Under the pieces are notes generated by a model that saw only the letters and a list, made by a program, of their open reading frames with translations, made no database searches and was not told the DNA's origin. The position numbers and the translations under genes are program-made. Below are positions 1-42,877 of a DNA stretch of 64,000 nucleotides, piece by piece. Position 1 is the stretch's first letter. The number at the start of each line of letters is the position of its first letter. The stretch is from Candidatus Heimdallarchaeum aukensis (lineage in GTDB: Archaea; Asgardarchaeota; Heimdallarchaeia; Heimdallarchaeales; Heimdallarchaeaceae): contig CP084166.1 of the NCBI GenBank assembly GCA_021513695.1, positions 2,912,001 to 2,976,000 of the forward strand, read 5' to 3'.

Positions 1-14
1 TTCTTATTTCAGAA

Positions 15-356
15 ATGATGAATTACTTCAATGAAAAAGAAGTGAGAGCGATATGTAATAAAGCAACAGAAGAAAGTAAAGCCATTTTTCTCTTTCCTCT
101 GGAAGAAATAGTTTCTCCTTCTGATTTTAATCACATTTTAGAATCATTGAAATCTGAGGGATATTCTTCAAATGAAATAGTGAAAATTTTTGTTGAACCA
201 GTAAAGATAATTAATTCTACACTTCGACAGAGAAACAAAAATAAAAGTGTAAAAATTTTTGCTGCTGTATTCAACAAACTAATAGAAAAACATGGTTTCA
301 CATTGGAAAGAATGGGTTTTCTTCATATTTTCTGCCCTGAAGAATATCTTTCTTAA
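15..356 (+). CDS. hypothetical protein (113 aa)
   Basis: Intact ORF in the track with no recognisable motif. Could be co-transcribed with the next gene. Confidence 0.3.
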   Translation: MMNYFNEKEVRAICNKATEESKAIFLFPLEEIVSPSDFNHILESLKSEGYSSNEIVKIFVEPVKIINSTLRQRNKNKSVKIFAAVFNKLIEKHGFTLERMGFLHIFCPEEYLS

Positions 357-407
357 AAGTTCATTTGAGAAACAATAATCTTTATTACTTCTTTTTCTTA
401 TATCCAA

Positions 408-1148: not shown

Positions 1149-1453
1149 TGGTTTCAAAGCAAGAAGCTATTCTCTTAATAATTGAAAGAGGTACAGGTGT
1201 AATAGGACCAGTGAAGATGATGTCTCTAGTTTCTGAAGCAGGAATAACTCTAGAAGACGGCAAAGTTGTCTCTCAAGATATAGATGAAAGTTTTAAAAAA
1301 CTTACAGAGAGATTTGCTTCGATTGCTCCAACTACTAGAATTACGTTGTTATCTTTAGCTAAAATGCATGGATTCAGCATTGAAGAAGATAAGGATAAAA
1401 AAGAAAGAAAAACATTTTTACGATTTAGAAACTGGAAACTTTTTAGACGTTAA
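1139..1453 (+). CDS. hypothetical small protein (the true start is probably the ATG at 1148)
   Basis: ORF overlapping the stop of the upstream gene, with no motif recognised. Confidence 0.3.
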   Translation: MVIMVSKQEAILLIIERGTGVIGPVKMMSLVSEAGITLEDGKVVSQDIDESFKKLTERFASIAPTTRITLLSLAKMHGFSIEEDKDKKERKTFLRFRNWKLFRR

Positions 1454-1574
1454 ATTATAATTTTATATTTTAAACAAATTTTTATCTACTTTAAAGTAAA
1501 ATTCAGTTTTTTCTTGCTTTATCTATTTTTGAGAAAAAACTTATAAGAAACAAAAATATTCTTCCTTACAACTT

Positions 1575-2894
1575 TTGAAAAAGGTTGAAACAATGCAACA
1601 AAAGTTCCAAAGAATCCAAGAACTCGATTTCTTAAGAGGAATTGCAATTTTAGTTATGCTAGTCTTTCACAGTTCTTACTACTGGGATTCAACGATGACT
1701 AGTACAGAGATGAATAATTGGTTGAACAACCCTTTGGCAATTTTTGCTTTATTTATAGGTAAATTTGCGGGTATCTTCGCTGTTATCTCTGGAGCAGCTA
1801 ATGCAATTAGTATCAGTGCAAGAGTAGAAAATAAAAAAAATAAGATAGGAGGAATAATCTATAGTTCTTTTGTTTCAGGTTTGTGGATAATATTTCTAGG
1901 AAGAATACACACATCCATGTTCAATCATACAATTAAAGGTGATCTAGTAACACCCTATCCTGATGGACCAGAACAGTATAGTTTAATTGTTGGGAGTATA
2001 CAAACGGGAGAGCTACAACTTCCATCAGAATTTATTTTAATTTTTAAGAATACAGCTCTATTTGTTATCGGAATGAGTGTAATGTGCTCTGGAGTTTTTC
2101 TTGCATTATTGTCAAGAAAGAATAATCACCAAAAATTAAAAAGAAATTTAATAATAATAGGATCAGTAGCAACAATAGTCATTTTGGTAACAGAACCTTT
2201 AAAAATATGGTTAAGGCCAATTTGGGTTAGTTATGCACTTAATCATCAATATGTCAAAGGTTTTTTGTTAGGTTTTTTAATAGGAGATACTTATCCTTTT
2301 TTCCCTTACGCAGGTTTTGCTTTCTATGGGATGATTTTTGGAATAGCTTATTATCACCAAATAGATAGAAGAAAAGTAGCTAAAATAGGAGGAACTGTAG
2401 GCGGAATTTATTTAATTTCAGGAATAATTCTGTTAATTATTTTAGGCCATCCTGATATTACAGAAGTTTTTCAGACCTTGTCAATACAATGGAATCTCTC
2501 ACAGATCGGGTCAATGATATTAATAATGACACTTGTGTATTGGATACACTTTAACACAAAAATGACAAAAGTTCAAAGAATTTTCCGTTCTAGATTTGTT
2601 CGTAGATTTGGGCTCCAAACATTAACTGTGTTTTTCTTAGAACCAATAGTAGGAACTTCAATTAAAGTATATATCTTGGATAAGATCTTTCCCGGGTGGT
2701 CAATTCATTTATCACTAGCATTCGTTTATGGAATATCACTAATATTTTTATGGTTCTTAATTTTAAGAGGATGGGAAGAAATTGATTTTATTGGCTCTTT
2801 AGAATGGATAACAGCGAAGGTAATAAGCTGGTTAACCTTTAGAGAACCTACAAGATTAAAGATTAAAGAAAATCTATATCTTGAAGCAAAATAA
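1575..2894 (+). CDS. polytopic membrane protein, DUF1624 / acyltransferase-3-like (heparan-alpha-glucosaminide N-acetyltransferase-like)
   Basis: The N-terminus RIQELDFLRGIAILVMLVFH matches the R-x-x-x-L-D-x-L/F-R-G motif that opens that family. Many hydrophobic helices follow. Confidence 0.45.
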   Translation: MKKVETMQQKFQRIQELDFLRGIAILVMLVFHSSYYWDSTMTSTEMNNWLNNPLAIFALFIGKFAGIFAVISGAANAISISARVENKKNKIGGIIYSSFVSGLWIIFLGRIHTSMFNHTIKGDLVTPYPDGPEQYSLIVGSIQTGELQLPSEFILIFKNTALFVIGMSVMCSGVFLALLSRKNNHQKLKRNLIIIGSVATIVILVTEPLKIWLRPIWVSYALNHQYVKGFLLGFLIGDTYPFFPYAGFAFYGMIFGIAYYHQIDRRKVAKIGGTVGGIYLISGIILLIILGHPDITEVFQTLSIQWNLSQIGSMILIMTLVYWIHFNTKMTKVQRIFRSRFVRRFGLQTLTVFFLEPIVGTSIKVYILDKIFPGWSIHLSLAFVYGISLIFLWFLILRGWEEIDFIGSLEWITAKVISWLTFREPTRLKIKENLYLEAK

Positions 2895-2980
2895 ACCTAG
2901 TCTTACTTTCTAAGTTTCTTTAATTACTTTAAATTATTATTTACTTAAAATTTAATAATAACTGTTTTCTATAAGGAATC

Positions 2981-4060
2981 GTGATCAATTTAACATTTAG
3001 TACTTTAATAATGTTTATTTCTACAATACCAGAGTTTATTGCTTTGGTAATGTGTGCAATAAATTTTAGGAAAAAAAGGTATTTGCATTATCTATATATG
3101 TTTGCAACTTGGTTCTTCCTTTGGCTAGGGAACCTTCTATTAGCAATTGGATATTTAACTCTGAATCTGGTTGTTTACAAAGTAGGTTTACTTGTTACTA
3201 TACCTTTAACATTTTTTATAATGTTGCTAGTTGATTCTATCTCTAGAGAATCAATTGAACCCTTTAAATTATCCATTGTTATGATAGTTTCAACTTTAGC
3301 TTTTGCTTTTGGTCTTGAGAAAAATGTAGTAGCATTAAATGTTTCAAAGTTGGGTGAAGTTGGGCCTATCGTGGTTGGAAGGTTCAATTATGCGCTAGCT
3401 GCATCATTTTTAGTCTCTTCTGTGCTTTGGTTTTACTATTTCTTGGTTTTATATTTGAAATCTCCAAAAAATTTGAGAAAAATAGCTTCTATTAATCTAT
3501 TGGGAGCTATTATTGGTGGACCTCTTGCTGGATTAGTTTATGCATCTGGAATTGTATGGTATTTACCAGGGACTGACTATTTCTTAATAGCAATTGGTGC
3601 TTTATTAACTACTTATAGTTTTTCAAAAGAGCCAAAATTAGGTTATATCTTGCCTTTTAAAGTCTCAAGGCTTTTATTAATAGATATAGAATCTGGTTTA
3701 CCTTTATTTTCTCACACTTGGGATAATTCAGGATTAGTTGATAGTTACTTATTTTCTGGAGCAATTCATGGAATTACAAACATATTGAATGAGAGTCTTC
3801 ACAAAGGCCTAGTTAAAGAGATTAGGTTAGAAGAAGCTTCGTTAATTATCAAAGCTTCAGAAGAAAAGGACTATCCAGTTGCTTTTGTTCTGATTACAAA
3901 TAAAACAAGTGCGATATTATCTCAGTCGTTAGATCTTTTGGAAAAAAATATTACAAGAACTATTCCTAAGGAAAAAATAGAGGAAATAACGATTAATCAA
4001 TCATCAAATCTTGAAAGCTATATAGAGTCTGCCTTCCCTTACGTTGTATCCTATACTTGA
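2981..4060 (+). CDS. membrane protein with a C-terminal ~100-aa Roadblock/LC7-like domain
   Basis: GTG start. About 230 aa of TM helices are followed by a soluble domain (LLLIDIESGLPLFSHTWDNSGLVDSYLFSGAIHGITN...). This domain aligns with the C-terminus of the protein encoded at 37035-39077. Confidence 0.4.
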   Translation: MINLTFSTLIMFISTIPEFIALVMCAINFRKKRYLHYLYMFATWFFLWLGNLLLAIGYLTLNLVVYKVGLLVTIPLTFFIMLLVDSISRESIEPFKLSIVMIVSTLAFAFGLEKNVVALNVSKLGEVGPIVVGRFNYALAASFLVSSVLWFYYFLVLYLKSPKNLRKIASINLLGAIIGGPLAGLVYASGIVWYLPGTDYFLIAIGALLTTYSFSKEPKLGYILPFKVSRLLLIDIESGLPLFSHTWDNSGLVDSYLFSGAIHGITNILNESLHKGLVKEIRLEEASLIIKASEEKDYPVAFVLITNKTSAILSQSLDLLEKNITRTIPKEKIEEITINQSSNLESYIESAFPYVVSYT

Positions 4061-4131
4061 ATATCTACAAAGCAAAAAACTGCTTTTAAGATAAAAAAAG
4101 ATAGTAGAAATTCTTACAACATTTCTATTTT

Positions 4132-5268
4132 TTAAATTTCTGTAAAGGATTCAACAACTTGTTTATTTAATCTTTTCAATGCTTCTACTATAAGTTCTAC
4201 TGTATTTTCCATATCATCAACAGAAATAATACCATTGTGACTATGAATGTGTCTAGTTGGGACACAAATAGCAAGAGAAGGACAACCAATTCCCGCTAAA
4301 TGAATGACTCCAGCATCTGTTCCACCAGGTACAGTAGATAATTGATAGGGAATATTTAGTTCTTCAGCTAAATCAATCATGAAATTTCTAAATCTTGGGT
4401 TGGGGATCATTGATCTATCATAAATAAACAAACTTGGGCCTTTACCCATTTTTGCAGGAGCTTTATCTCCAATTCCAGGGACATCTCCAGAGATATCTAC
4501 ATCAATTGCTATAGCCAAGTCAGGTAAAATTTTTTCTGCAGCAGTTCGTGCTCCTCTTAACCCTACCTCTTCTTGTGTAGTTGAGCAACCGTAAACAGTG
4601 TTTGGATGTTTAATATTCTCTTCTTTAAGCCTTCTGATAATTTCAGCAGTTAAAACTGCTCCTACACGATCATCAAAAGCTTTTCCTACTACAAATTTCT
4701 TCATTTCAAATTTCTTTTCCTTACCTTCCCCGTCTTCTGATTCTATTAATCTAGGTCTTTCCCAAATTTCAAACTTAGCATCAGGCATAACAGGATCTCC
4801 TTCACGAATACCAAGTTCTTTTACTTCTTCCTTTGATGTGCATCCAACATCGATATACATTTTATCTTTTACAACTACTTTGTTTCTATCTTCTGGTGAA
4901 AGAACGTGAGGAGGTTTGGCAGTAATAATTCCTGGGATAAACTCTCCTTTATGAGTTCTAATAATTACTCTTTGACTGAGAAGAGTTTGATCCCACCATC
5001 CACCAAGTTGATGAAATTTAAGAAAGCCATCTTTGGTGATAGATTTGATCTGAAAACCTATTTCATCAATATGCCCAGCAATCATTATTTTAGGGCTATC
5101 CTCTGTTCCCTTTTTAGTGAAAATTAGAGAACCAGTTCTATCTTTATCGATGTGATCAGCAAATTTCTCGACATAATTACGCATCTTTTTTTGGACTTCC
5201 CATTCAAAACCTGAAGGACCAAAATCATTAGTTAACTCTTCTAATAGGTTGAGATTTATTTTAGACAT
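4132..5268 (-). CDS. M42 family (TET/FrvX-type) aminopeptidase
   Basis: The IAGHIDEIGF motif (the AHxDEIG M42 signature) and overall M42 layout at 378 aa. Confidence 0.8.
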   Translation of the reverse strand: MSKINLNLLEELTNDFGPSGFEWEVQKKMRNYVEKFADHIDKDRTGSLIFTKKGTEDSPKIMIAGHIDEIGFQIKSITKDGFLKFHQLGGWWDQTLLSQRVIIRTHKGEFIPGIITAKPPHVLSPEDRNKVVVKDKMYIDVGCTSKEEVKELGIREGDPVMPDAKFEIWERPRLIESEDGEGKEKKFEMKKFVVGKAFDDRVGAVLTAEIIRRLKEENIKHPNTVYGCSTTQEEVGLRGARTAAEKILPDLAIAIDVDISGDVPGIGDKAPAKMGKGPSLFIYDRSMIPNPRFRNFMIDLAEELNIPYQLSTVPGGTDAGVIHLAGIGCPSLAICVPTRHIHSHNGIISVDDMENTVELIVEALKRLNKQVVESFTEI

Positions 5269-5344
5269 AAATAAGAAAAAAAGTAAGCACTTTAATATTT
5301 TGTGCTTGTAAGCTCATTCTATTTTAAAACTTGAAGAGTGTAGT

Positions 5345-6544
5345 TTAATCCATTATGTTAAGTTTAAAGTTGTTTAGTATAAAGAAAAAAGGAAGTAATA
5401 AAGTAGCTCCTAACGTTGCAGAAAAGACAGTAGTATCAATGGTTACATTGTAAAAGTTTAGGAATAAACTGTAGATGAAGAAAGCTAAGTTTGTTAATGC
5501 AGAGATAAATGAAGTAAATGTAGCTCGAAGATCCGAACTCAGTTTTCTTTGTATCATTTGACTTATAATTGGTACACGTCCTCCTCTTGTAATCTGCAAG
5601 GCATAGATAGCTGTAAGAATTAATAGTGAATGTAGTTTCCAGATAACAAGGTAACTTATTGTTTCAATAACAAGAAAAGCATAAACTGCCAACAGTTCGA
5701 ACTCTTGTTTTACTTTTCCCATTATTGTAGAGCTCAGAGCAGCAATAAGATTCATTGTGGCGAAAATTAATCCAATTTCAAATGTACTAATGTTTAAGGC
5801 AAATAATTTTGGTTGATATGACCAGAATACTGCTCGTCCAAAGACAGATAGCGAGAATGTAGCAATGAAAATGGATATTAGGAACTTAGAATGGATGAAT
5901 AGTTTAATAGATTTAACAGTAGCTCCGTTAATACTTTCTGCTTTTTTCCTCTCTGGTTCATAAACGAAGAGAAACATAACAGCTTTAAATCCAAAGGAAA
6001 TGCTAATTATTAGCAAAGGAGTATATAGATTATGAAGGGCTATTAATCCTGAGATGGGTAAAGAAATCATTGCAGTTAAGAAACTAAGAGTGGTTGCTTT
6101 GCTGAGGATTTGCTTATATCGTTCAGTTTCATTTATCTCAATCAGACCATCATAGACCAAGCTAACATCCGAGCCTGAAATTACTGCACCTCCAACTCCA
6201 AATAGAGCTTCAGCAAGAGCATAAGCAGTAAAGGATCTTCCTATGAAATATAAGAAACAGGCAACAGTTAGGATAGAATAACCAGTTACTAATACCAGTT
6301 TTCTTTTGAACATATCAGAGAAAGCACCAGAAGGAATCTCAAATATCATTATACTTAATGCAAATATTCCTTGCAATAGTAGCATTTGAGCAAAAGATAG
6401 GTTTGCTAACTCCCAAACTTTTACTATTACAGGAATAACCATTGCAGTAATATCTAACTTAGAAAGGATAAAGAAAAGATTATTTCTTTTAATTAATTTT
6501 TCTTTTTCTTTACCTTTCAATTCATTTGTTGAGGAGCACATCAT
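5345..6544 (-). CDS. MFS-type transporter
   Basis: About 12 predicted TM helices in a two-halves organisation (399 aa). Confidence 0.5.
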   Translation of the reverse strand: MMCSSTNELKGKEKEKLIKRNNLFFILSKLDITAMVIPVIVKVWELANLSFAQMLLLQGIFALSIMIFEIPSGAFSDMFKRKLVLVTGYSILTVACFLYFIGRSFTAYALAEALFGVGGAVISGSDVSLVYDGLIEINETERYKQILSKATTLSFLTAMISLPISGLIALHNLYTPLLIISISFGFKAVMFLFVYEPERKKAESINGATVKSIKLFIHSKFLISIFIATFSLSVFGRAVFWSYQPKLFALNISTFEIGLIFATMNLIAALSSTIMGKVKQEFELLAVYAFLVIETISYLVIWKLHSLLILTAIYALQITRGGRVPIISQMIQRKLSSDLRATFTSFISALTNLAFFIYSLFLNFYNVTIDTTVFSATLGATLLLPFFFILNNFKLNIMD

Positions 6545-6649
6545 TTTTTCACTTCCTTTAATATTTTTGCAACAAGTAGCGAAAGGTTGAAGATAGCGTA
6601 GGCTAACAATTTGGCTAAAAACAAGTCGAGAAATTTCTTATTCACCAGA

Positions 6650-6781
6650 AAGAATGGACGAAAAGCCAGAACAGAGTTAAGACCCTGGTGAAGAAGTAAA
6701 CTTCTACTTTTAATATGGTGTGAGGACGATAGCATACGCTACAAAAAACCAATTATCAAGCGTATGAGTTCGTCCATTCTT
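6650..6781 (-). ncRNA. candidate structured RNA / 5'-UTR regulatory element (riboswitch-like) upstream of the MFS transporter
   Basis: A GC-enriched patch within otherwise extremely AT-rich intergenic DNA. A 13-bp perfect inverted repeat AAGAATGGACGAA (6650-6662) / TTCGTCCATTCTT (6769-6781) closes an internal 8-bp hairpin (6733-6740 with 6759-6766), an AGAAG/CUUCU hairpin and a CCAG/CUGG hairpin. It lies 106-237 nt upstream of the transporter start. Strand and class are unproven. Confidence 0.25.
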
Positions 6782-7194
6782 AAACATCTTAACTCTAAAG
6801 TTTAATTCTTCTGTATTGTATTTAAACGTTTTCAAAATAGTTTTTCAACTTACAGAAAAAAGTAGAAATCTATTTAGGAAAAAACTGTTTGATTATATTT
6901 ATATATTGTATGTCTAATAAATACTCGATAAAATGACTAGCTTCTTTAGAACAATCATTGATTATATAATAGGAAAAATAACACGGGTAGATAAAAATAA
7001 ACTTAAAGTAAAAATGGACATAAAGGAAAAAGAATCAAAGGTATTTCGAGGAATAAAAGGGACAAAAAGTAAAGCAGAAACAGTTGTCCAAATAATGAAC
7101 TCATTTAGAATATAGTGTATCTACATGAAACTTCGCCAAATCTTTTTACATAAAAAAATTAAAAAAGTAGATTTCTAGCTATTTTTGTGCAAAA

Positions 7195-8238
7195 ATGATA
7201 ATAAAAGAAAAAAGGACTTCTTTGATAAAAAATCTTTTTCCTTCACATGTTCCTCAAATATGGTGTCCTCCTCTTACCCATTACAATGAGAATGGAGAGA
7301 TTGATTTTAACAGAATGAAAAAACATATTGAATTCTTGATACCATATATTCACTCTTTTTTAATCCCTGGTTCAACAGGAGATGGTTGGGAATTAAAACT
7401 AAGTGAGTACAAGTCTATTCTTGAATTCATTCACAAAGAATTTGGAACTAAAAACAAGATTAACTTAATCATTGGTTTGTTAAGAGAGGATCCTAAAGAT
7501 AGAATGGAATTTTTAGACCATGCTATAAGTTTCCTTAAAGAGAAAAATATTGAAATCAAAGCAAATGGTTCTAATTTTGGATACTTCAAGGGTTTTGTCA
7601 TATGTCCAAAAAAAGGAAAAGAATTGACTCAAGATGAAATTAAAGAAGATATTATAGAGTTACTCGAAAAAGACTATCCTTTTGTTCTTTATCAACTTCC
7701 TCAAGTTACAGAAAATGAATTAACTCCTGAATTAGTAGAATATCTTGTAAAAAGTTACTATAATGTATATATGCTAAAAGATTCAAGTGGAGCTGATAGA
7801 ATCGCTAACTCCGATAGAGATTATCGCAGTCTAGTGATTTTAAGAGGAGCAGAAGGGAATTATTTTGAACAACTTAAAGTAGTTGGAGGAAGGTATGATG
7901 GTTTTTTACTAAGCACTGGAAATAGTTTTCCTAAAGAACTTTACTCGCTAGTTGATTTAATAAATAAAGGAAAAAACGAACAAGCACAAAAACTTTCAGA
8001 AAGATTAACTAATGCAGTGAATGAAGTGTTTAAACTTGCTCAAACAATCCCGGAAGGAAATGCTTTTACAAATTCTAATAAGCTAATAGATCATTTTAAT
8101 GCCTATGGAGAAAAATGGAGAGACTTTCCAGCTCCTAGACTTCATAGTGGAAAAAGAATTGATGATACTCTATTAGAACAAACTGTAAAAATTCTAATTA
8201 AGTATGAATTTTTGAAAAAAGAAGGATACATGTTCTAA
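7195..8238 (+). CDS. DapA/N-acetylneuraminate-lyase family (class I aldolase)-like protein
   Basis: ENGEIDFNRMKKHIEFLI...IPGSTGDGWELKLSEYKSILEF resembles the DHDPS N-terminus (GTTGE..LS..E). MLKDSSG resembles the Schiff-base Lys motif (IKdssG). Confidence 0.4.
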   Translation: MIIKEKRTSLIKNLFPSHVPQIWCPPLTHYNENGEIDFNRMKKHIEFLIPYIHSFLIPGSTGDGWELKLSEYKSILEFIHKEFGTKNKINLIIGLLREDPKDRMEFLDHAISFLKEKNIEIKANGSNFGYFKGFVICPKKGKELTQDEIKEDIIELLEKDYPFVLYQLPQVTENELTPELVEYLVKSYYNVYMLKDSSGADRIANSDRDYRSLVILRGAEGNYFEQLKVVGGRYDGFLLSTGNSFPKELYSLVDLINKGKNEQAQKLSERLTNAVNEVFKLAQTIPEGNAFTNSNKLIDHFNAYGEKWRDFPAPRLHSGKRIDDTLLEQTVKILIKYEFLKKEGYMF

Positions 8239-8270
8239 AAATTAAAGAAAAAAGGAAAAAAGGAAAAAAG

Positions 8271-11162
8271 CTATGCTTTGAACTTTTTGAACTTTTTAGC
8301 TACAATGGCAACTATAGGCAAAGCAATAAATATACTCCACATATTAAAAGGTAAGTCTAATGTTTGTTTATCTTGTGTCGTAGTTGGTTCTGATGGGTCA
8401 GATGGGTCAGATGGGTCAGTTGGGTCAGTTGGGTCAGTTGGGTCAGTTGGTTGGGAATCGGATGAAGCTTGAACTGTTAATGTTATGTTATTTGAATTTC
8501 CATAAGTGTCTGTAGCTGTAATGAAAATAGTGTGTTTTCCTGAAGTAGTTATGTAGTCTTTTAGATTGGCTGAATATGTATCTCCATTACTGTAGGATCC
8601 TGACAAAATTAGTTTTCCATCTATGTAAAATTCGAACCAGTCTGGGTTATCATCGTAGAGGGTGAAAGTAAATTCTTTATCTGTACCTATTATATAGTCA
8701 AAAGGATCTTCTAGGTTTGTGTAAATTTGAGGTGGATTGTAGTCATATTCATAGCTGCTATTGTAACTGTTTACATAAAATGTTATATTGTTATTATTTC
8801 CCCATTGATCAAATGCTTCGATATAAATCTCATAGGTTCCTTCTTCAAAGATATAGTCACTCAATAAGAAATGTTGCTCATTCTCTGGATACCATCCATA
8901 GCCAACATAAGGAACATCAGAAAGAACAAGTGTGCCATTGATGTAAAGGTTGTATATATCAGGATATTCATCCATTATGTAGAAGGTATAGTTGTAATAA
9001 TCACCTATTGTATAATAGCTTACATTGTATATGTTCTCAAATCTAGGTGGGTCAGTTTCTGGTTGGCTAGAAACAACATTAATTTTCCATTCATAATATC
9101 TTTCATTTCCTGAGGTATCATTAGCAAAGAATGATAAAATATGTCCTCCTGTTTCACTAAATAATTCTTTTCCAGTAAAGTAAAGCTCAAAATAGTTCGG
9201 GTCATAGTTTCCTGAAGAAAGAATTACACCATCTAATGTTATTTGGTAATAATCTGGATTTTGCTCATTAATTGTAAAGCTATACCTCTTTGCACTTCCT
9301 AGTTCATAGTAGGTATCTACACTCCATCCTAAACTTGGTTTTTTAATATCTGTTCCTTCGGGATAAGCTTTTACCCAGAATGATTCTTTTTTGTAATTAT
9401 CAAACATATCGTAAGCTATTACAGTAAGATTATGTAAGCCTGTTCCACTGATTAAATCATTAAAATTATAGTAATAAGTATAAAATTCTGAATAATTTCC
9501 TGTGTCATATATAATTCCATCAACGTAAAACTCAAAGTAATTTGGATTTCCATCCTGTACATCAAACCAGAAGTTTTCATTACTTCCTAGAGCCCATTTA
9601 TAAGGTTCTCCCAAATTTTTCCCTTCATACCAAAGCGTATATAGATATGGAGGATCTACATCTGTTCCACTAGGGTAGATAGTTAAAGGAACAATTTTAG
9701 AATAAGTAGTGTTGACTGCGTCAGTAAAAGTTATGTTAACTGTATAGTCTCCAACTGCCCATGTATTACCAATCCATAAATCTAAAGTTTTGTTTCCATA
9801 ACCTCTATAATAGTTTGAATAATATTGTGTTAAATCTGATTGGTTATAATAGAATTTAACTTCTAATTCCCAAATAGTGTCAGAATAGATATAGATGTAT
9901 TTTAGAGATAGATCTATATCTTCTACCCCTTTATATAATTTATTTGTCTCGATTTGGCTCTTCCATTCAGGAATTGGGTATCTATCATCTTCTATCGATT
10001 GGAACCTTACATATGAATTTCCTTTAGCGTCATAAACTATAATTTTGAAATCTTTCCAAGTAGAATCAAGATTATACTCAAAATAATCTGTTGGAACGGT
10101 GTAATATAGATCTGTACTAGAAATGGGCAGACTGTCAACTAAAACCCAACGCCAATAATTATACTTGTAATTCATTACATAGAATTCTAATTTTACAACA
10201 TCTTCTGAGAATTGTAGTGGAAAAGTTATTTCTATTGTGCTATTGGTTATAGGTTTATTCCAGCTGTAATCCTTGAAAGTGAAATAGGGAACAAAGGAAT
10301 TATCACTTGTAGAATAAAAGTTGCTTGCTTTAGTTAAAGTATAAGAGTACTCTGACTTAGTATTTTCTACACGAGTAAAATTAACATAGGTGCCATAGTC
10401 ATCTAAATATTCATAGAAACTGTAAATATAATCATAATGATAGATTTTTTTGAATTCTAGTAAAGTTCCTGTATTATTGTCAACATAGTAATAATACTCT
10501 TCATAATTATAGTTAAGTGTATCAGCATCAACGCCATACCATGAAGAGGTCCAAGAACTTTGCCAAACTTCTGTTTTATAATAATAAACATCTATTTGCA
10601 AAGTAAAAATAACATTATTTACTGTATATTCTCTAGTTTCTTGGCCTATAAATGATGTTTGATAAAAATAATCTAGAGGATCGAAAACTAGATTAGTGTA
10701 ATTGTTTAAAGTTCTATAATATGCATCACCTGAATCCCATGATTCATAGATTTTTTCGTATTCGTAAGTACTACTTTCGTACCAATCATTATTTTGCCAT
10801 CTATAATATGTATTGGCATAGTAATAAGAATAGTTATTGGTACCTGTAGTAACGTCAAAAACCTCAATATAACTTGAACCTAAGTTTGTATTTGTAATAT
10901 TAAAAGCTCGAAAAGAATTTCTTACATCTCTATTGTAGTAAATATTTTGATAAGCATAACTATCTTTATTCTCATCAGGAAGGAATACCTCACTGGTATT
11001 AGTTTCATAAACTCTCTTATAATTATAAATGAATGTATCTCCATTATTTAACTGATAAATCTCTGCATTCACACATGTCGTTTGAAAACTTATGAAAGAA
11101 GTAAATGTAGCAATCAAGATCAAAGCAATAATTAAATTACTTTTCTTTATCAACATAAACAC
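8271..11162 (-). CDS. giant secreted surface (S-layer/adhesin-like) glycoprotein, paralog A (963 aa)
   Basis: An N-terminal signal peptide (IIALILIATFTSFIS...VNA|E). Extreme Tyr/Asn/Asp/Thr bias with dozens of N-x-S/T sequons. 4-5 tandem ~100-aa repeats of the type NPDYYEFYVDG...SG.Y.....PEGTD. A TDP/SDP linker, a C-terminal TM helix and a KKFKKFKA tail. GTG start preceded by GGGGTG. Confidence 0.7.
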   Translation of the reverse strand: MFMLIKKSNLIIALILIATFTSFISFQTTCVNAEIYQLNNGDTFIYNYKRVYETNTSEVFLPDENKDSYAYQNIYYNRDVRNSFRAFNITNTNLGSSYIEVFDVTTGTNNYSYYYANTYYRWQNNDWYESSTYEYEKIYESWDSGDAYYRTLNNYTNLVFDPLDYFYQTSFIGQETREYTVNNVIFTLQIDVYYYKTEVWQSSWTSSWYGVDADTLNYNYEEYYYYVDNNTGTLLEFKKIYHYDYIYSFYEYLDDYGTYVNFTRVENTKSEYSYTLTKASNFYSTSDNSFVPYFTFKDYSWNKPITNSTIEITFPLQFSEDVVKLEFYVMNYKYNYWRWVLVDSLPISSTDLYYTVPTDYFEYNLDSTWKDFKIIVYDAKGNSYVRFQSIEDDRYPIPEWKSQIETNKLYKGVEDIDLSLKYIYIYSDTIWELEVKFYYNQSDLTQYYSNYYRGYGNKTLDLWIGNTWAVGDYTVNITFTDAVNTTYSKIVPLTIYPSGTDVDPPYLYTLWYEGKNLGEPYKWALGSNENFWFDVQDGNPNYFEFYVDGIIYDTGNYSEFYTYYYNFNDLISGTGLHNLTVIAYDMFDNYKKESFWVKAYPEGTDIKKPSLGWSVDTYYELGSAKRYSFTINEQNPDYYQITLDGVILSSGNYDPNYFELYFTGKELFSETGGHILSFFANDTSGNERYYEWKINVVSSQPETDPPRFENIYNVSYYTIGDYYNYTFYIMDEYPDIYNLYINGTLVLSDVPYVGYGWYPENEQHFLLSDYIFEEGTYEIYIEAFDQWGNNNNITFYVNSYNSSYEYDYNPPQIYTNLEDPFDYIIGTDKEFTFTLYDDNPDWFEFYIDGKLILSGSYSNGDTYSANLKDYITTSGKHTIFITATDTYGNSNNITLTVQASSDSQPTDPTDPTDPTDPSDPSDPSEPTTTQDKQTLDLPFNMWSIFIALPIVAIVAKKFKKFKA
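8396..8467. repeat. 9-bp tandem repeat (about 7 units of GGGTCAGAT/GGGTCAGTT) encoding the TDPTDPTDPTDPSDPSDPSEP linker of paralog A
   Basis: Read directly from the sequence at 8396-8458. Confidence 0.85.
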
Positions 11163-11494
11163 CCCAAAATAAATTTTCTCAGAAATATTATATAAAAATT
11201 ATTTAATATGCAATCGAGTAGAATGCTTGTCTTTATTATCTTCTATAACTTCTTAACTTTGTTTTTTTCTATATTTTTGAAAATTGCTAAAATTGATCAA
11301 TGCGTATTAATTTTAAATTGAATATTGAATAAGTTAAGAATCGAACTTAATATTATCTTTAAACTAACTTAATTTTAATTAATAGAGTTTTTTCAATCTT
11401 ATAATGCCAAACTAAAAAATAGAAGAAATGAATTCTGTTTTAGTTATAGATTCAAAATTAATTCTCGATAAAAAAGAAGAAAAAGTAAGTAAAT

Positions 11495-13140
11495 TTATGT
11501 TTTATACTTTTTGAACTTTTTAGCTATAATAGTTATTACAGGTAAAGCGATAAAAATACTCCATACACTAAATGGTAAATCTATTGTTTGTTTATCTTGT
11601 GTAGTAGTTTCATTAGTATTATCAGAACTTGATTCATAAATTGCTTTTATTGATAATTTTAATTCATTGCTATTTCCAAAAACATCATAAGCAACCATTT
11701 TTATTGTATGTATTCCTTCTTCTGTAATGTAGGTATTAAGGTTAAATGAGATAGTAGTCCCATCAGTGTAACTATCGGTTTTAATCAATTCGTCGTCAAT
11801 GTAGAGTTCATAATAATCAGGATTTGCATCATATAATGTAAATTTCACTGTTTTACTAGTACCTATTACGTATTCAATTGCATGCCAATAGTCCATGTTA
11901 GTATCTATCTGGGGTGCATCATAATCATCTTGATAGGCTTCAGTATAGGCATTAACGTAAATTGTAATATTATTATTGTTTCCCCATTGATCGAAGGCTT
12001 CTATGTAGATTTCATTGGTTCCTTCTTCAAAGATATAATCTCGCAATTGCAAATGTTGCTCATTCTCTGGATACCATCCATAACCTTCATAAGGTACATT
12101 GGAAAGCGTTAGATTTCCATTAATATAAAGATTGTAAGTATCAGGATATTTATCGTTAATGTAGAAGGAAATGTCGTAATAATCCCCAATTCTGTAATAG
12201 TCAACATCATATATATTCTCGAATGTGGGAGGATCAGTCTCCGGTTGACTAGGAACGACATTAATTTCCTTTTCATAATACATTTCATTTCCTGAGGTAT
12301 CATTAGCAAAGAGGGATAAAATATGTCCGCCTGTTTCACTAAATAATTCTTTACCAGTAAAGTATATCTCAAAGTAGTTCTGATCATAGCTGCCTGATGA
12401 AATAATTTCATCGTTTAGTCTAATTTCGTAATAATCAGGGTTTTTCTCATTAAACCAAAAACTATATCGTTCTGCGCTTCCTAATTCATAGTAAGAGTTA
12501 ACATTCCACCATAAATCTGGTCTTTTTAAATCTGTTCCTTCAGGATAAGCTTTTACCCATACTGATTCTTTCCTATAATTTCCAAATTGATCATAGGTTA
12601 TAACAGTAAGGTTGTGCAATCCAACTTCATTAATAAGATCATTAAAGTTGTAGTAATAGTTAATTTGTTCAGAGTAATTTCCTGTATCATATAGAACTCC
12701 ATCAACATAAAATTCATAGTAATTTGGGTTATCATCCCAAGTATTGAACCAGAATTCTTCATAATCTCCGATAGCCCATTTATGTGGTTCTCCAAAATTT
12801 TTTTCTTCATACCAAGGCACATTTAAATCTGGAGGGTCTACATCCGTTCCACTGGGATAGATAGTTACAGGAACAATAGTAGAATAAGTAGTATTGACCG
12901 CGTCAGTAAACGTTATGTTAACTGTATAGTCTCCAACAGCCCATGTACCACCAATCCAAACATATAGTGTCCTATTTCCATAACCCTCATAATAGTTTGA
13001 CCAAAATTGTGTCAAATCTGACTGGTTATAATAGAATCTTGTTTCTACTTTCCAAGTAGTATCAGAATAAATATAAAGACATTTTAAGATCAGTTCCTTG
13101 TCTTCTACTCCTTTATATTCTTTATTTGTTTCTATTTGAC
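11495..13140. repeat. left arm of a ~1.4-1.65-kb near-identical inverted repeat (3' part of paralog B)
   Basis: Identical antisense ORFs occur at mirrored coordinates: 11882-12112 and 36009-36239, 12109-12411 and 35710-36012, 12598-12822 and 35299-35523. Mirrored coordinates sum to 48121. Confidence 0.85.
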
Positions 13141-14338
13141 TCTGCCAATCGGGAATAGGGTACCTGTCATCTTTTAATGAATAGGATTTTACGAATAAGT
13201 TGCCTTTTGCATCGTAAACTATTATTTTAAAATCTTTATGTATATCATACTGTATATATCCAAAGTAGTCAATTGGAGCGGTATAATTCAACTCTGTGCT
13301 AGTAATTGTTTGACTATCTACTAAATCCCATCTCCAAAAGCCATATTGATAGTTATGCACATAAAATTCCATTTTAACAACATCTTTAGAGAATAGGAAT
13401 GGAAAAGTTATTCCTGTTGTACTATTAGTTATAGGTTGAGTCCAGCTATTGTCCTTAAAAATAAAATATGGGACAAAAGAATTATCACTTGTAGAATAGA
13501 ACTTGCTTGCTTTAGTTAGAGTATATGTTTCAGAATTTTGGTTATTTTCCACACGGGTAAAATTAACATATGTATTGTAATCAGGTAAATATTCATAGAA
13601 ACTATAAAAAATATCATTATGATAATTTTTCTTATATTCTAGCAAAATTCCGGTGTTGTTGTCAACATAGTAATAACATTCATCGTAATTATAGCTGTGT
13701 GCTGTAGTCTCAACATCGTACCATGTCGAATTCCATGTGTCTTCCCACTCATTCATTTTACAATAATATATGTCTACTTGTAAAGTAAATACTTCACCAT
13801 TAACAACATATGTTCTAGTTTCTTGAGAAATGAATGTTGATGCTCCAAAATAACCTATTGGATCAAAAACTAGATCAGTGTAATTATTAAGGGTCCTATA
13901 ATCAGTATATCCCGAATCCCAAGAATAATTGATTATATCTTCATATTCATTTGAATTGTCTTTATACCAACCATCTGAATTCCATCTGTAATATGTGCTG
14001 TTCCAATAATAGATATAATCGGTGGCTCCCGTTGCAACATCAAAAACTTCAATATAGCTTGAACTTAGGTTTGTGTTTGTAACATTAAAAGCCCTAAGAA
14101 AATTATATTCTTCTTTCCTAAAGTGTACAGATTTGTAAGCATAATTTTCCTTATTATCATCTGGAAAGAATATTTCATTTGTATTAGATTCATAAACTTT
14201 CTTATAATTATAAACGAATTTATCTCCATTATTTAACTGATAAATCTCGGCATTTACTCCTACAGTTTGCAAACTTATGAAAGAAGTAAATGTAGCAATT
14301 AAGATCAAAGCAATAATTAAATTACTTCTTCTTATCAA
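11495..14338 (-). CDS. giant secreted surface glycoprotein, paralog B (947 aa)
   Basis: Same architecture as paralog A. TTG start preceded by GGGGTG. The C-terminal ~470 aa are identical to paralog C apart from a few residues. Confidence 0.7.
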   Translation of the reverse strand: MIRRSNLIIALILIATFTSFISLQTVGVNAEIYQLNNGDKFVYNYKKVYESNTNEIFFPDDNKENYAYKSVHFRKEEYNFLRAFNVTNTNLSSSYIEVFDVATGATDYIYYWNSTYYRWNSDGWYKDNSNEYEDIINYSWDSGYTDYRTLNNYTDLVFDPIGYFGASTFISQETRTYVVNGEVFTLQVDIYYCKMNEWEDTWNSTWYDVETTAHSYNYDECYYYVDNNTGILLEYKKNYHNDIFYSFYEYLPDYNTYVNFTRVENNQNSETYTLTKASKFYSTSDNSFVPYFIFKDNSWTQPITNSTTGITFPFLFSKDVVKMEFYVHNYQYGFWRWDLVDSQTITSTELNYTAPIDYFGYIQYDIHKDFKIIVYDAKGNLFVKSYSLKDDRYPIPDWQSQIETNKEYKGVEDKELILKCLYIYSDTTWKVETRFYYNQSDLTQFWSNYYEGYGNRTLYVWIGGTWAVGDYTVNITFTDAVNTTYSTIVPVTIYPSGTDVDPPDLNVPWYEEKNFGEPHKWAIGDYEEFWFNTWDDNPNYYEFYVDGVLYDTGNYSEQINYYYNFNDLINEVGLHNLTVITYDQFGNYRKESVWVKAYPEGTDLKRPDLWWNVNSYYELGSAERYSFWFNEKNPDYYEIRLNDEIISSGSYDQNYFEIYFTGKELFSETGGHILSLFANDTSGNEMYYEKEINVVPSQPETDPPTFENIYDVDYYRIGDYYDISFYINDKYPDTYNLYINGNLTLSNVPYEGYGWYPENEQHLQLRDYIFEEGTNEIYIEAFDQWGNNNNITIYVNAYTEAYQDDYDAPQIDTNMDYWHAIEYVIGTSKTVKFTLYDANPDYYELYIDDELIKTDSYTDGTTISFNLNTYITEEGIHTIKMVAYDVFGNSNELKLSIKAIYESSSDNTNETTTQDKQTIDLPFSVWSIFIALPVITIIAKKFKKYKT

Positions 14339-14746
14339 CTTAACACCCCAAAATAAAGTTTCTCAGAAATAATATTTAAAAATTACTAATTAAGTAATCG
14401 AGCTGAAATTTTTTTCTATTCTCTTTTTAGAACTTACTAATGATTCTTTTTTCCTTTTTCAGAAAAATTGTTATAATTGGCTGATGATTATAAATCTTAA
14501 AATCGAATATAGATACATTCAGAACTAAAGTTGTAATTATCTTTTAATTGATTTTATTTCATCTCATTCCACTTCATTTAATTTCATTTAATTTCAGTCT
14601 CAATGTTAAGCTAAAAAAGAGAGAATAGGATTCAATTAAAACAATTTTTCTTTCTTTTTTTAAAGCAGAATTTCTTCATTTTCTTATTAGTTTTAAAAAG
14701 TCTAAGATTCAATATTAGTTCTTTTCACTTTTGTTGAAAGTAAGTG

Positions 14747-17989: not shown

Positions 17990-19362
17990 AATTTAACCTC
18001 CATTTCAGGAAATAATGTCATAAAATGCGCAATAATTAATTGACGAACTAGTAGTCTTTTGTATTTTGCACTTCCTCTTACATCACTTATAGGACTTATT
18101 TCTGAGTCAGCTATTTCTAACGCTTCTCTAACTACTTCAGAATTAACCTCTTTATCATTTAGAAAGTTTGAAGTTTTTTCTAAATATTTAGGAACGGGAG
18201 CTACTCCTCCTACAGATAAATGGACATTCTTGATCTTATTTTCTTCTTTTTCAAACGATATTGCGCTGTTTACACTTGCTATATCTACATATTTTCGCAT
18301 AGCTACTTTTTCAAAATTGAAAAATCTCTTTTTTGATTTAATTCTTAACGATTCTACCACTTCTCCTTCTTCTAAATCCATTTGTTTGTATCCTTTGTAA
18401 AAATCTTTAAGAGGTAGAATTCTACTTTTTTCTCCTTTTCTCAATGATATTTCTGCTCCTAATCCTAAAAAATAGATTGTTAAATCTCCTATTGGAGACG
18501 CATTAACTAGGTTCCCTCCTAAAGTCGCTCTTATTCTTATTGGTAACGCAGAAACAACTCTTAAATCATTCTTTATATCAAAAAGCTCATTCAACTCTTC
18601 TGATAAGCGAATATCTTCCATACTCGCTAAAGCACCAATGTAAATATACCCATCTTCTTCCCAAATATCGTTTCTAATTTGCAGTTGAGACAGAAAAACA
18701 GGTTTTTCTATTTTCTCTCTTTGAACAAGTAAATCTGTTGCTCCTGCGACATTTGTTCCTTTACCATTTGATTCTAATTTTTCATTTAATTTCTCTAATT
18801 TTTCATGTATATTTTTAAAATATTCAGGAATAACGCCTAATTCAATTAGATAATTAACTCTCGCCGAATAATTAAGATCTTCTACTTTTATTTTTTCAGC
18901 TATTTTTTCTGCAGCACGCTTTATTGCTGCATAAGTTCCACATCTACACAAATTACCTTCAATTGCTGTTAAGATATCTTCTTTTACAAAAATTTCATTT
19001 AAGAAAAATCCAGTCAAACTCATAACAAAACCAGGAGTGCAAAATCCACACTGTGAAGCTCCTTCCTCCACTATTGCTTCTTGAATTGGAGTTAACTTTT
19101 CTTGATTTATTCCTTCAATAGTTACAACATGTTTTCCTATTATTTCTCCTAGAGGTAATATACAAGAAGTAACAGCTTTATATTTTACTGTAGATTCTTC
19201 CATTTCTCCAAGTAAAATCATACAAGCGCCACATTCTCCTTCATGACAAGCTTCTTTTACTCCAGTGAATCCTTTTTTTCTTAAAAAATCTAAAGTTGAA
19301 CTTCCTAAAGGAGCATCTATTTCTTCAATTTTGTTATTTAGTACGAACTTCATTTTTTTCAC
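17986..19362 (-). CDS. xdhA: xanthine dehydrogenase family 2Fe-2S + FAD-binding subunit (fused small/medium subunits)
   Basis: 2Fe-2S motifs CHEGECGACM, QCGFCTPGF and NLCRCGTY are followed by a CO-dehydrogenase-flavoprotein-like FAD domain. Confidence 0.85.
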   Translation of the reverse strand: MKKMKFVLNNKIEEIDAPLGSSTLDFLRKKGFTGVKEACHEGECGACMILLGEMEESTVKYKAVTSCILPLGEIIGKHVVTIEGINQEKLTPIQEAIVEEGASQCGFCTPGFVMSLTGFFLNEIFVKEDILTAIEGNLCRCGTYAAIKRAAEKIAEKIKVEDLNYSARVNYLIELGVIPEYFKNIHEKLEKLNEKLESNGKGTNVAGATDLLVQREKIEKPVFLSQLQIRNDIWEEDGYIYIGALASMEDIRLSEELNELFDIKNDLRVVSALPIRIRATLGGNLVNASPIGDLTIYFLGLGAEISLRKGEKSRILPLKDFYKGYKQMDLEEGEVVESLRIKSKKRFFNFEKVAMRKYVDIASVNSAISFEKEENKIKNVHLSVGGVAPVPKYLEKTSNFLNDKEVNSEVVREALEIADSEISPISDVRGSAKYKRLLVRQLIIAHFMTLFPEMEVKL

Positions 19363-19519
19363 TGTTTTCTATTCTACCAAACATATCATAGCTCAAAGTT
19401 TACCTTTTAATGAGCTATAATATACTCTATTTATTACAAAGTTTCTAATTTTACGATATAAGTCTTATTAATCAAACAATTTATTTTCTTATTTTTTATG
19501 CAAGTGATTTGTTTTTCAA

Positions 19520-20758
19520 TTATTGAGTTTCGAACATCTTAACTATTTCTTCTTTTGAATATGACTTACTTGAGATAACTCCTTCTACAGCTTTAATATC
19601 TTTTAATCCATTTCCAGTTACAGCGACACAGACAGAATCTTCTTTTCTTATTTTTCCTTCTTTTATTAATTTTTTCAATCCTGCATATGGTGCTACAGCA
19701 GCTGGTTCTGCAAATAAGCCTGTTTCTTTTCCTAATTCTGAAATTGCTTCCAATATTTCTTCATCACTTACAGTCACATAGTATCCTCCACTTTCAGCGA
19801 CATATTTACAAGCTTTAATTACATCCCTTGGTGTTCCCACACTTATACTATCGGCAACTGTTGAGCCTTTAATTGGATGAGGAGTATAAGGTTCTCCTTT
19901 GTCAAAAACATGTTTAATTGCAGCTATTCCTTCTGCTTGTACTCCTATTATTTTAGGTATTGATTCTATTAATCCTATTTCCTTAAACTCTTTAAAACCC
20001 TTATACAGAGAACTTACTACTGTTCCATCTCCCACTCCTACAAGAACATAATCTGGAACTTTGAAATCATTTTGTACTGCAATCTCAAAGGCTCCCGTTT
20101 TTTTTCCCTCCAACAAATAAGGATTTATTGCTGCATGTCTGCAATACCACCCTTTCTTCAACCCAAGTTCCAAAGATAGATCATAAACTTCATCATATGT
20201 TCCTTCTACAGCGAAAACTTTTGCTCCTGATATTTCTAGTTGAGCTCTCTTTCCTCCGGGTATAGTTGAGGGGACGAAAATATAAGTTTCCATGGGCGTA
20301 TGAGCATTTAGCATAGCTAAAGAAGAGGCAGCATTACCTGTTGAAGCACAGAAAACAGTATCATTTTTTTCATCCAGAGCCATATTTATTGCTATTGAAC
20401 TTGCTCTATCTTTGTAAGAACTTGAAGGATTAGACCCATCATATTTTAACATTAAATCTTTTAAACCCAGTAAATCGAATTTATATAAGGGAGTTCCTCC
20501 TACATAGGGATCAAATTTTCCTTTTGCCTTTGTTGGTAAAAGAAAATCAAATTGATACATTGAAGCTTTTTTATAGAAATTCTTCTGAACTACGACGGGG
20601 TTCTCTTTTATCTTTTCATAGTCATAGATCACTTCAAGTGTACCCATAATTGGTCCACATTTTTCACAGAAGTATAGTCCTGGTCTAGGTTCATATTCTT
20701 TTTTGCAAGAAATGCAACGAAGGAAGTAGCTGCTCATTTGAATTCCTCTTTTTTTCAT
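19520..20758 (-). CDS. threonine-synthase-like fold-type-II PLP enzyme with an N-terminal Cys4 zinc ribbon
   Basis: N-terminal CISCKKEY...CEKCGP plus the PLP-lysine motif SNPSSSYKDRAS. The position inside the catabolic cluster suggests a non-ThrC role. Confidence 0.55.
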   Translation of the reverse strand: MKKRGIQMSSYFLRCISCKKEYEPRPGLYFCEKCGPIMGTLEVIYDYEKIKENPVVVQKNFYKKASMYQFDFLLPTKAKGKFDPYVGGTPLYKFDLLGLKDLMLKYDGSNPSSSYKDRASSIAINMALDEKNDTVFCASTGNAASSLAMLNAHTPMETYIFVPSTIPGGKRAQLEISGAKVFAVEGTYDEVYDLSLELGLKKGWYCRHAAINPYLLEGKKTGAFEIAVQNDFKVPDYVLVGVGDGTVVSSLYKGFKEFKEIGLIESIPKIIGVQAEGIAAIKHVFDKGEPYTPHPIKGSTVADSISVGTPRDVIKACKYVAESGGYYVTVSDEEILEAISELGKETGLFAEPAAVAPYAGLKKLIKEGKIRKEDSVCVAVTGNGLKDIKAVEGVISSKSYSKEEIVKMFETQ

Positions 20759-42868: not shown

Positions 42869-42877
42869 GTAATTATC

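Follow-up and report, generated by a model that had tools for sequence, protein, structure and literature searches.

The chromosome of the Asgard archaeon Candidatus Heimdallarchaeum aukensis (3.08 Mb) carries, within the stretch of 64,000 nucleotides analysed here (contig CP084166.1, positions 2,912,001 to 2,976,000; about 31% G+C; hereafter the window), three genes that probably encode large proteins of the cell surface. These paralogs are called P1, P2 and P3, and window positions are used throughout (Table 1). A sequence-only reading of positions 8271-14338 had announced three paralogs of about 950 amino acids (aa), and open reading frames (ORFs) of 961, 947 and 947 aa were found. P1 and P2 lie inside that interval, with P2 directly 5' of P1 and in the same orientation, whereas P3 lies outside it, divergent to P2 and 19 kb away. 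P2 and P3 are each 100% identical to a GenBank entry (K9W45_12915 and K9W45_12985, respectively). The exact P1 protein, read from its ATG start, was not found in a collection of 15 billion proteins that does contain P2 and P3; its public record may have a different annotated start, or P1 may be unannotated.

Gene and protein anatomy

The three products share a common build. Each begins with a Sec-type signal peptide composed of a K/R-rich n-region, about 17 hydrophobic residues and a VNA↓E site, which is kept in all close homologues, and each ends with QDKQT(L/I)DLPF(N/S)xWSIFIALP, a transmembrane segment and the basic tail KKFKK(F/Y)K(A/T). Both the signal peptide and this terminus (DLPF(S/N)xWSIFIALP followed by KKFKK) had been recognized by the sequence-only reading, and both are present in all three paralogs. 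In a full-length AlphaFold2 (AF2) model of P1, obtained with a seven-sequence alignment (mean predicted local distance difference test (pLDDT) 70, predicted template modelling score (pTM) 0.40), a signal helix (residues 4-22) and a beta head (41-277) are followed by six beta-sandwich domains (292-390, 401-494, 504-598, 608-695, 705-798 and 810-899), a disordered segment (900-936) and a transmembrane helix (937-958). Residues 30-505, the N-module of head and first two sandwiches, were re-predicted with a 19-sequence alignment that included distant relatives (pLDDT 87.9, pTM 0.73), and in this confident model the head is an all-beta domain of 240 aa with about 12 long antiparallel strands.

Sandwich domains 3-6 are related repeats of about 100 aa ('NPDYY...GN' repeats), 21-34% identical to one another in P1 and marked by the signature DxNPDYYExYxDG ... 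GxHxLTxxAxDxxGN. The four or five tandem beta-sandwich repeats first proposed are accordingly four as a related set, within six sandwiches in the AF2 model. Secreted beta-sandwich repeats were recovered by structure prediction, and the homologue search brought up no cytoplasmic enzymes. The linker that precedes the membrane anchor is acidic and rich in Ser, Thr and Pro; in P1 it contains a 9-nt tandem repeat that is missing from P2 and P3. This repeat is in frame, and slippage could alter the length of the linker. The mature protein is acidic, with an isoelectric point (pI) of about 4.2.

The amino acid composition is unusual for the window and, as first described, rich in Tyr (12-13%, vs 4% in other window ORFs) and Asn (8.5-9.7%). 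Dozens of N-x-S/T sequons had been claimed, which is too many: each protein has 18-20, about 2 standard deviations above the 13 +/- 3 obtained in a composition-preserving shuffle. Their density (2.0 per 100 aa) is nevertheless threefold that of the other 36 window ORFs (0.67), and many are conserved. Twelve occur in at least six of seven close homologues; of 20 family members, some of them only 20% identical, 19 have a sequon at N455 (P1 numbering) and 14 at N305. Homologues of OST3, STT3 and ribophorin are encoded by Heimdallarchaeum genomes (PMC8813620), and the enrichment and conservation of sequons would fit real N-glycosylation.

Initiation at UUG or GUG downstream of GGGGUG or GAGGU had been proposed for the whole family, which holds for P2 and P3 but not for P1. 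The latter has an in-frame ATG 3 nt downstream of GGGGTG, and the GTG at 11162 is a mechanical ORF start only, placed inside the Shine-Dalgarno (SD) motif. P2 starts at TTG 14338, 5 nt downstream of GGGGTG, and P3 at GTG 33780 or TTG 33783, downstream of GAGGT. Since GenBank uses TTG for P2 and P3, and neither gene has another in-frame Met that retains the signal peptide, non-AUG initiation appears to be real for two of the three paralogs. The SD motifs had also been described as strong. SD-like motifs of the GGAGGTGA type stand 5' of about one-third of window genes, and AGGAGG is paired with a TTG start at gene 51328-52350, so that the SD-like signals and non-AUG starts of P1-P3 are ordinary for this genome and were rejected as a special feature of the paralogs. 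A TTTAWATA box is found about 40 nt 5' of each of the three starts, and these TATA-like boxes are putative promoter elements.

Table 1. Coordinates of the three paralogs and of their features (AF2, AlphaFold2; SD, Shine-Dalgarno)
Feature	Position	Strand	Description	Basis
P1 coding sequence	8271-11156	-	961 aa; ATG 11156, stop 8271-8273	
P1 signal peptide	11064-11156	-		AF2 and sequence
P1 N-terminal beta head	10326-11036	-		AF2; N-module pLDDT 87.9, pTM 0.73
P1 Ig-like domains 1-2	9663-10295	-		AF2
P1 Ig-like repeats 3-6	8454-9659	-		AF2 and repeat alignment
P1 acidic Ser/Thr/Pro linker	8349-8453	-		AF2 disordered region
P1 linker repeat	8382-8450	-	9-nt tandem repeat, 7.7 copies, encodes (P-T/S-D)n	
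P1 membrane anchor	8274-8348	-	Juxtamembrane DLPF motif, transmembrane helix, KKFKKFKA tail	Sequence and AF2
P1 putative expression signals	11160-11197	-	SD-like GGGGTG 11165-11160; archaeal TATA-like TTTTTATATAA ~11197-11187, ~40 nt 5' of ATG	Read from sequence
P2 coding sequence	11495-14338	-	947 aa; TTG start; K9W45_12915 / UJG40722.1, 'hypothetical protein'	Exact-sequence look-up
P2 putative expression signals	14344-14382	-	SD-like GGGGTG 14349-14344; TATA-like TTTTTAAATA 14382-14373	Read from sequence
P3 coding sequence	33783-36626	+	947 aa from TTG 33783, alternative GTG 33780; K9W45_12985 / UJG40736.1, 'hypothetical protein'	
P3 putative expression signals	33739-33774	+	TATA-like TTTAAATA 33739-33746; SD-like GAGGT 33770-33774, 5 nt before GTG 33780	Read from sequence
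Inverted repeat, left arm	11482-12944	-	3' half of P2 (repeats 3-6, linker, anchor) and 13 nt beyond stop; mismatch at 11620	
Inverted repeat, right arm	35177-36639	+	3' half of P3	

Relatives and C-terminal tails

Searches of full-length P1-P3 against Pfam, NCBIfam and PDB sequences gave nothing above curated cut-offs. A profile of the repeats matches two adhesins, SraP and SiiE (E ~6e-4), and the NPDYY repeats appear to be remote members of the bacterial immunoglobulin-like (BIg) class of adhesin domains. As in SiiE, SraP, Bap, Big_13 and OmpL47-type proteins, they are beta-sandwiches of about 95-100 aa arranged in tandem stalk arrays, with the C-terminal signature G-x-(H/Y)-x-(L/I)-x-(V/I)-x-A-x-D-x-x-G-N. 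They differ in that the hosts here are archaeal, that all matches remain under the curated cut-offs, and that the N-terminal motif D-x-N-P-D-Y-Y-E-x-Y-x-D-G and the inter-domain linkers P-x-G-T-D-x-x-P-P are specific to the family. For Big_13 and OmpL47-type domains, the fold of tandem Ig-like sandwiches of about 100 aa agrees, whereas the scores fall short. The initial opinion that the proteins resemble no known adhesin family therefore has to be given up for the repeats and stands for the head domain and the C-terminal motif, which have no model or close structure.

Fold searches added no relative. Foldseek of the full-length model against the PDB aligned complement and alpha2-macroglobulin with template modelling (TM) scores of about 0.13, a likeness of architecture that was rejected as homology, and in a search of the PDB with the N-module nothing specific matched the head (all TM scores <=0.25). 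A precomputed match of PF27332 (TP_0781) to the homologue P0005 was only 'faint', was not reproduced with Pfam and was dismissed. P1-P3 form an uncatalogued family among the archaeal surface glycoproteins with Ig-like domains, a class already known.

An exhaustive profile search of 1.84 billion representative proteins (E<=1e-3) recovered 310 relatives. Among the best 150 of these, about 20 clusters contain the whole N-module, with two to six repeats and 600-1040 aa; the remainder have the Ig-like repeats only, embedded in proteins of 1,000-5,000 aa. The relatives are mostly from Heimdallarchaeia, and the named ones all come from metagenome-assembled genomes (MAGs) of Asgard archaea (Heimdallarchaeaceae, Kariarchaeaceae, Hodarchaeales and Helarchaeota), save for a single record labelled Pacearchaeota. 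A word-indexed homologue search gave at least 5-6 close clusters, all from Heimdallarchaeaceae, and the distant relatives were all recovered by the profile search; H. endolithica alone matched in a genome scan, and a viral scan for the family had no match.

Copy number and arrangement were compared in two complete genomes and two MAG contigs. A neighbouring gene for a protein resembling dihydrodipicolinate synthase (DHDPS) is kept in H. endolithica as well as in a MAG of the Heimdallarchaeaceae, the latter with a single paralog copy at the site. Short head-domain members were also observed outside the window, namely K9W45_01410 of H. aukensis (P0164, 649 aa) and its H. endolithica orthologue K9W46_01825 (P0167), which consist of the head, two sandwiches, two repeats and an LDAPN-type tail. 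Because these lie elsewhere in both genomes, each genome has more than three family members.

The tail is as characteristic of the family as the head. Head-domain proteins end in (N/Q)T-x-(L/I)-D-(A/S)-P-(N/G/Q), a transmembrane helix and RKRK, of which the QT(L/I)DLPF of P1-P3 is a variant; all 31 complete tails of the head-bearing subset belong to this class, and P0005 has an LELSF variant. Across 182 sequences the LDAP-type tail occurs only with the head-domain family (31 complete proteins and four C-terminal fragments) and is never combined with a PGF tail. Many repeat-only relatives end in PGF-type tails, which reach 25.6, 23.2 and 21.6 bits on the Heimdall-CTERM model NF045529 (cut-off 24), and giant Heimdallarchaeial proteins with such tails contain the same type of Ig-like repeat as P1-P3 (profile E 1e-24 to 1e-58).

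These observations raise the question of whether the juxtamembrane motif is a sorting signal, at which an archaeosortase-like enzyme would cut off the transmembrane segment and attach the protein to a lipid, in the manner of ArtA at PGF-CTERM. The layout is that of exosortase and archaeosortase signals, with the motif, a hydrophobic helix and a terminal basic cluster (...QTLDLPFNMWSIFIALPIVAIVAKKFKKFKA; AF2 helix 937-958) placed behind a Ser/Thr/Pro-rich linker, and the Heimdall-CTERM (NF045529) and Loki-CTERM (NF033507) models describe the same tripartite C-terminal design in the same lineage. Moreover, the motif is kept down to about 20% overall identity, the relative P0078 has PGF fused to it (...SPGFLDAPFNAV...), and the PGF tails of the Ig-repeat relatives, at or near the NF045529 cut-off, belong to a CTERM-type class already curated for this lineage. 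Membership of a known signal fails, however. None of the CTERM models matches the P1-P3 tails at E<=10. TIGR04126 (PGF-CTERM, cut-off 24.5 bits), which detected the control tail P0012, matched neither P1-P3 nor their isolated tails at E<=10, and the 26-position NF045529 model (cut-off 24 bits) matched neither the P1-P3 tails nor the short paralogs P0164 (H. aukensis), P0167 (H. endolithica) and P0061. Other head-domain members either lack a match or give weak, sub-threshold ones on Heimdall-CTERM and Loki-CTERM (P0030, 12.8 and 12.2 bits; P0007, 17 bits), which on NF045529 cover the transmembrane and basic parts only. Genuine sorting signals are usually common to unrelated substrates, whereas the motif (L/I)D(A/L)P(N/G/F), unlike the NF045529 signal, is confined in the 182 sequences to one family and never stands there on unrelated ectodomains; its occurrence solely with the family's own head domain speaks against a generic sorting signal. 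In addition, no exosortase or archaeosortase gene was found among the window ORFs scanned with Pfam. A sorting signal at the motif seems rather unlikely. The tripartite layout is like that of an archaeosortase signal, but none of the known signals matches, and it is safer to assume an ordinary type-I anchor whose juxtamembrane motif is conserved.

Recombination between the copies

P2 and P3 share an inverted repeat of 1,463 bp with one mismatch (99.9% identity), which covers their 3' halves; in the 5' halves, identity falls to 68-89%. Identity of P1 to either copy is about 70-75% from end to end, and the last domain of P1 diverges more than any other part of it. The description of three copies with a diverged N-terminal and a homogenised C-terminal half hence applies to P2 and P3 and not to P1. 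The same pattern is seen in H. endolithica, where identity between the copies E1 and EX is 93% over the 3' half and 81% over the 5' half. Since 3' halves within a genome (100% in H. aukensis, 93% in H. endolithica) are more alike than 5' halves (81-84%) in both species, the stalk-encoding half appears to be homogenised within each genome, and the 1,463-bp tract is most readily read as a gene-conversion or recombination tract between P2 and P3.

Comparison with H. endolithica (CP084167, 3,153,379-3,195,742) further revealed that the flanks 1-8376 and 33805-42873 are colinear at 89-96% identity and that the segment 14648-33911 between P2 and P3 (about 19 kb) is inverted, with breakpoints inside the paralogs. 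The boundaries of this large inversion are formed by the homologous halves of the genes. The inversion could be a real recombination event, a flip-flop within the population or a scaffolding choice. The H. aukensis chromosome was assembled from short-read contigs scaffolded with Nanopore reads amplified by multiple displacement amplification (MDA) (PMC8813620), and as identical inverted repeats of 1.46 kb flank the segment, its orientation could have been set during assembly. A second rearrangement affects EX (L001 8288-11137), in which nt ~133-1416, encoding the head and Ig-like domains 1-2, are inverted in place; re-inverting L001 8420-9703 restores a frame of 948 codons that is interrupted by one internal stop, at codon 440. 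EX could be a pseudogene of recent date, represent an 'off' state or have arisen in the assembly.

Surface variation had been suggested from the sequence, and at its strongest this would mean a programmed system in which recombination or inversion switches or shuffles the displayed head, as phase or antigenic variation against viruses or grazers. The near-identical inverted repeat of P2 and P3, the 19-kb inversion with breakpoints inside genes, the restorable frame of EX and the homogenised 3' halves of both genomes are what such a system could leave behind. The other marks of one were not found. The ratio of nonsynonymous to synonymous substitutions (dN/dS; Nei-Gojobori, by region) is 0.12-0.43 everywhere, highest in the head domain, so that no domain-wide diversifying selection was detected. 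The inversion in EX is bounded only by the 6-bp inverted repeat ATTTAT/ATAAAT, which is missing from the H. aukensis copies, and no conserved inverted repeats stand at the H. endolithica junctions in other copies. A Pfam scan of window ORFs found no recombinase gene; with neither conserved flanking sites nor a nearby recombinase, the paralogs do not qualify as an inverton or shufflon, and a dedicated inversion switch was rejected. There are, moreover, only three copies, the comparison spans two genomes, and either inversion could be technical (the 19-kb orientation a scaffolding choice, that of EX an assembly error) or, for EX, belong to a dead pseudogene. Programmed variation is for these reasons quite improbable. 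Surface variation as such is genuinely backed by the footprints of recombination (the P2/P3 tract, the concerted evolution in H. endolithica and the inversion between the inverted copies), though in two copies rather than three and with no sign of domain-wide diversifying selection. As the 3' halves of P2 and P3 are near-identical and the intervening segment is inverted, the paralogs probably evolve by recombination, with modules exchanged among copies under purifying selection.

Probable surface function and genomic surroundings

We consider it reasonably probable that P1-P3 are Sec-exported, N-glycosylated and C-terminally anchored coat or adhesin proteins of the cell surface, similar in build to csg, the S-layer glycoprotein of Haloferax volcanii. 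The signal peptide and the transmembrane anchor are predicted from the sequence and the model, as is N-glycosylation from the enriched and conserved sequons. The proteins would be exported by Sec and cleaved at VNA↓E, and their 18-20 sequons, about 12 of them conserved, would be glycosylated by the oligosaccharyltransferase of the AglB/STT3 type encoded by Heimdallarchaeum. The C-terminal helix would hold the protein in the membrane with the basic tail inside the cell, and the Ig-like domains would form a stalk of about 20-25 nm that presents the head outward. The motif in front of the helix may be an archaeosortase-like processing site. Proteins of this design could serve as a structural and adhesive part of a proteinaceous coat on Heimdallarchaeaceae cells.

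Such a role agrees with what has been seen in cultured relatives, which carry amorphous surface proteins without a paracrystalline S-layer. In one cultured member of the Heimdallarchaeaceae, cryo-electron tomography (cryo-ET) revealed an amorphous protein coat rather than a paracrystalline S-layer (bioRxiv 10.1101/2025.11.06.686947), and cultured Lokiarchaeia likewise have numerous amorphous surface proteins and no paracrystalline S-layer. Several points weigh against the coat or adhesin assignment. The pTM of 0.40 for the full-length model makes the domain arrangement and the stalk length guesses. The closest domain models are well under their cut-offs (Big_13, PF19077: 18.2 bits vs 27, E 3.5e-3; OmpL47-type domain, NF047446: 20.8 bits vs 40, E 4e-4), and the PGF-CTERM and Heimdall-CTERM models have no match to P1-P3. 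The family is rare in metagenome collections, where one scan found none and another a single distant locus, and the metabolic neighbours of the genes give no functional hint. Surface location and abundance are both read from the sequence alone; proteomics of the Lokiarchaeon P. syntrophicum failed to detect its predicted S-layer-like PKD proteins (PMC11284389), so that abundance should not be deduced from architecture.

The original comparison with S-layer glycoproteins is borne out by the layout, in which a signal peptide, a string of Ig-like domains, a Ser/Thr/Pro linker and a motif with transmembrane helix and basic tail follow one another; the formation of a lattice has no support here. 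The csg protein (PDB 7ptp, a PGF-CTERM/ArtA substrate) also has six Ig-like domains, is acidic and contains N-glycosylation sequons, their use being a prediction only for P1-P3. There is, however, no detectable sequence homology between the two, the 240-aa beta head is an addition of P1-P3, and the PGF motif of csg is replaced by DLPF or LDAP(N/G), with which P1-P3 fail TIGR04126. This point-by-point likeness in architecture, together with the pI of 4.2, would be expected of true S-layer proteins whose ectodomains self-assemble into a regular two-dimensional lattice. We regard this as unlikely given that cryo-ET of the sole Heimdallarchaeaceae member so examined showed an amorphous coat and no lattice, that the head-bearing family is narrow and essentially restricted to Heimdallarchaeaceae rather than spread across many lineages, and that three diverged paralogs plus a 649-aa relative suit a multigene surface family better than a single dominant lattice protein. 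S-layer proteins have been described from Hodarchaeales, where KTGHC1_P6247 and KTGSC1_P0196 were detected in culture and are N-glycosylated at N-x-S/T, mainly near the N-terminus (bioRxiv 10.1101/2025.02.26.640444). Compared by description only, these are homotetramers with a central pore that occur in many Promethearchaeota lineages, and the P1-P3 family is far narrower.

Compatible with the coat or adhesin assignment, and less probable than it though the strongest of the alternatives, is a function primarily in ligand binding. The head is pictured here as an open beta-barrel with kinship to LolA, LppX, ependymin or lipovitellin-type shells; its ligand would be hydrophobic or a glycan, presented by a partner cell, a mineral or a polymer, and the stalk would only give reach, so that binding instead of coat structure would be the function. 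The design of stalk and head, the kinship of the repeats with those of SiiE and SraP and the very high Tyr, Trp and Asn content typical of adhesins and carbohydrate-binding modules point in this direction, as does the head being the fastest-evolving part (dN/dS up to 0.43). On the other side, the Foldseek search with the head ended without a match (TM scores <=0.25 throughout), and neither a ligand nor a partner nor a conserved pocket came to light. The boldest version of the surface-protein assignment joins several claims, namely that P1-P3 are the main building blocks of the amorphous coat, including the lining of internal vesicles in one cultured member, that recombination between inverted copies (gene conversion, the 19-kb flip and the head-module inversion) generates surface variation, and that the (L/I)D(A/L)P motif is a new sorting signal; as a whole it is very unlikely to be right.

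Models of eukaryogenesis invoke cell-cell contacts, and the surface of the Asgard archaea, relatives of the eukaryotes, is believed to mediate them. A lineage-restricted, multi-copy family of stalked, anchored proteins that are predicted to be ready for glycosylation is a concrete candidate for the coat. If the coat assignment is untrue, the genes are ordinary hypothetical surface proteins, and their interest rests mainly on the organism and on the recombination footprints, a small and checkable case of paralog-driven rearrangement in a complete Asgard genome. Pfam and NCBIfam have gaps at the head domain, which has neither a close PDB match nor a family model, and at the juxtamembrane motif, which is uncatalogued.

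The genes around P1-P3 are metabolic and include, besides the DHDPS-like protein, an M42 peptidase and a major facilitator superfamily (MFS) transporter. The Pfam scan of window ORFs found no glycosyltransferase, sortase or recombinase near the paralogs, and Rfam found no structured RNA in the window. Between P2 and P3, the genes of the segment 14747-33514 resemble a cluster for purine/pyrimidine catabolism, encoding two molybdoenzymes of the xanthine dehydrogenase family with XdhC and MobA maturation proteins, two amidohydrolases, an Fe-S protein resembling dihydroorotate/dihydropyrimidine dehydrogenase, a carbamoyltransferase, an M20 peptidase and two pyridoxal phosphate (PLP) enzymes. Two other predicted surface proteins, with ectodomains unrelated to those of P1-P3, are encoded in the window. 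The first (26068-27924, - strand) combines a PQQ/FG-GAP beta-propeller with a C-terminal transmembrane helix and basic tail (...YAPTFGIVFLVTFLYFIRKLARVKKLKRKK), and the second (60902-61984, + strand) consists of a NosD-like beta-helix, a Thr/Pro linker, a transmembrane segment and a basic tail (...NSLTINISIILISSVIITLIRSRKLKKRH); neither tail matches a CTERM sorting model.

Further downstream, an array of clustered regularly interspaced short palindromic repeats (CRISPR) at 43373-45865 (+ strand) comprises 38 identical 30-nt repeats (ATTTCAATCCCACTATGGTCTGATTCTAAC) with spacers of 36-37 nt, and a degenerate repeat lies at 55974-56003 (- strand). The array position has a homologue in H. endolithica (L002, ~19055-20283). 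The adjoining region 46232-55945 is a probable cas cluster, in which the ORF 52353-54425 had no Pfam match. It includes a Cas3-like protein of 943 aa (47746-50577, - strand), recognized by eye from helicase motifs and an HD-like N-terminus, and a Csa3-type regulator (55307-55945, + strand; Pfam Csa3_N, E 3e-11).

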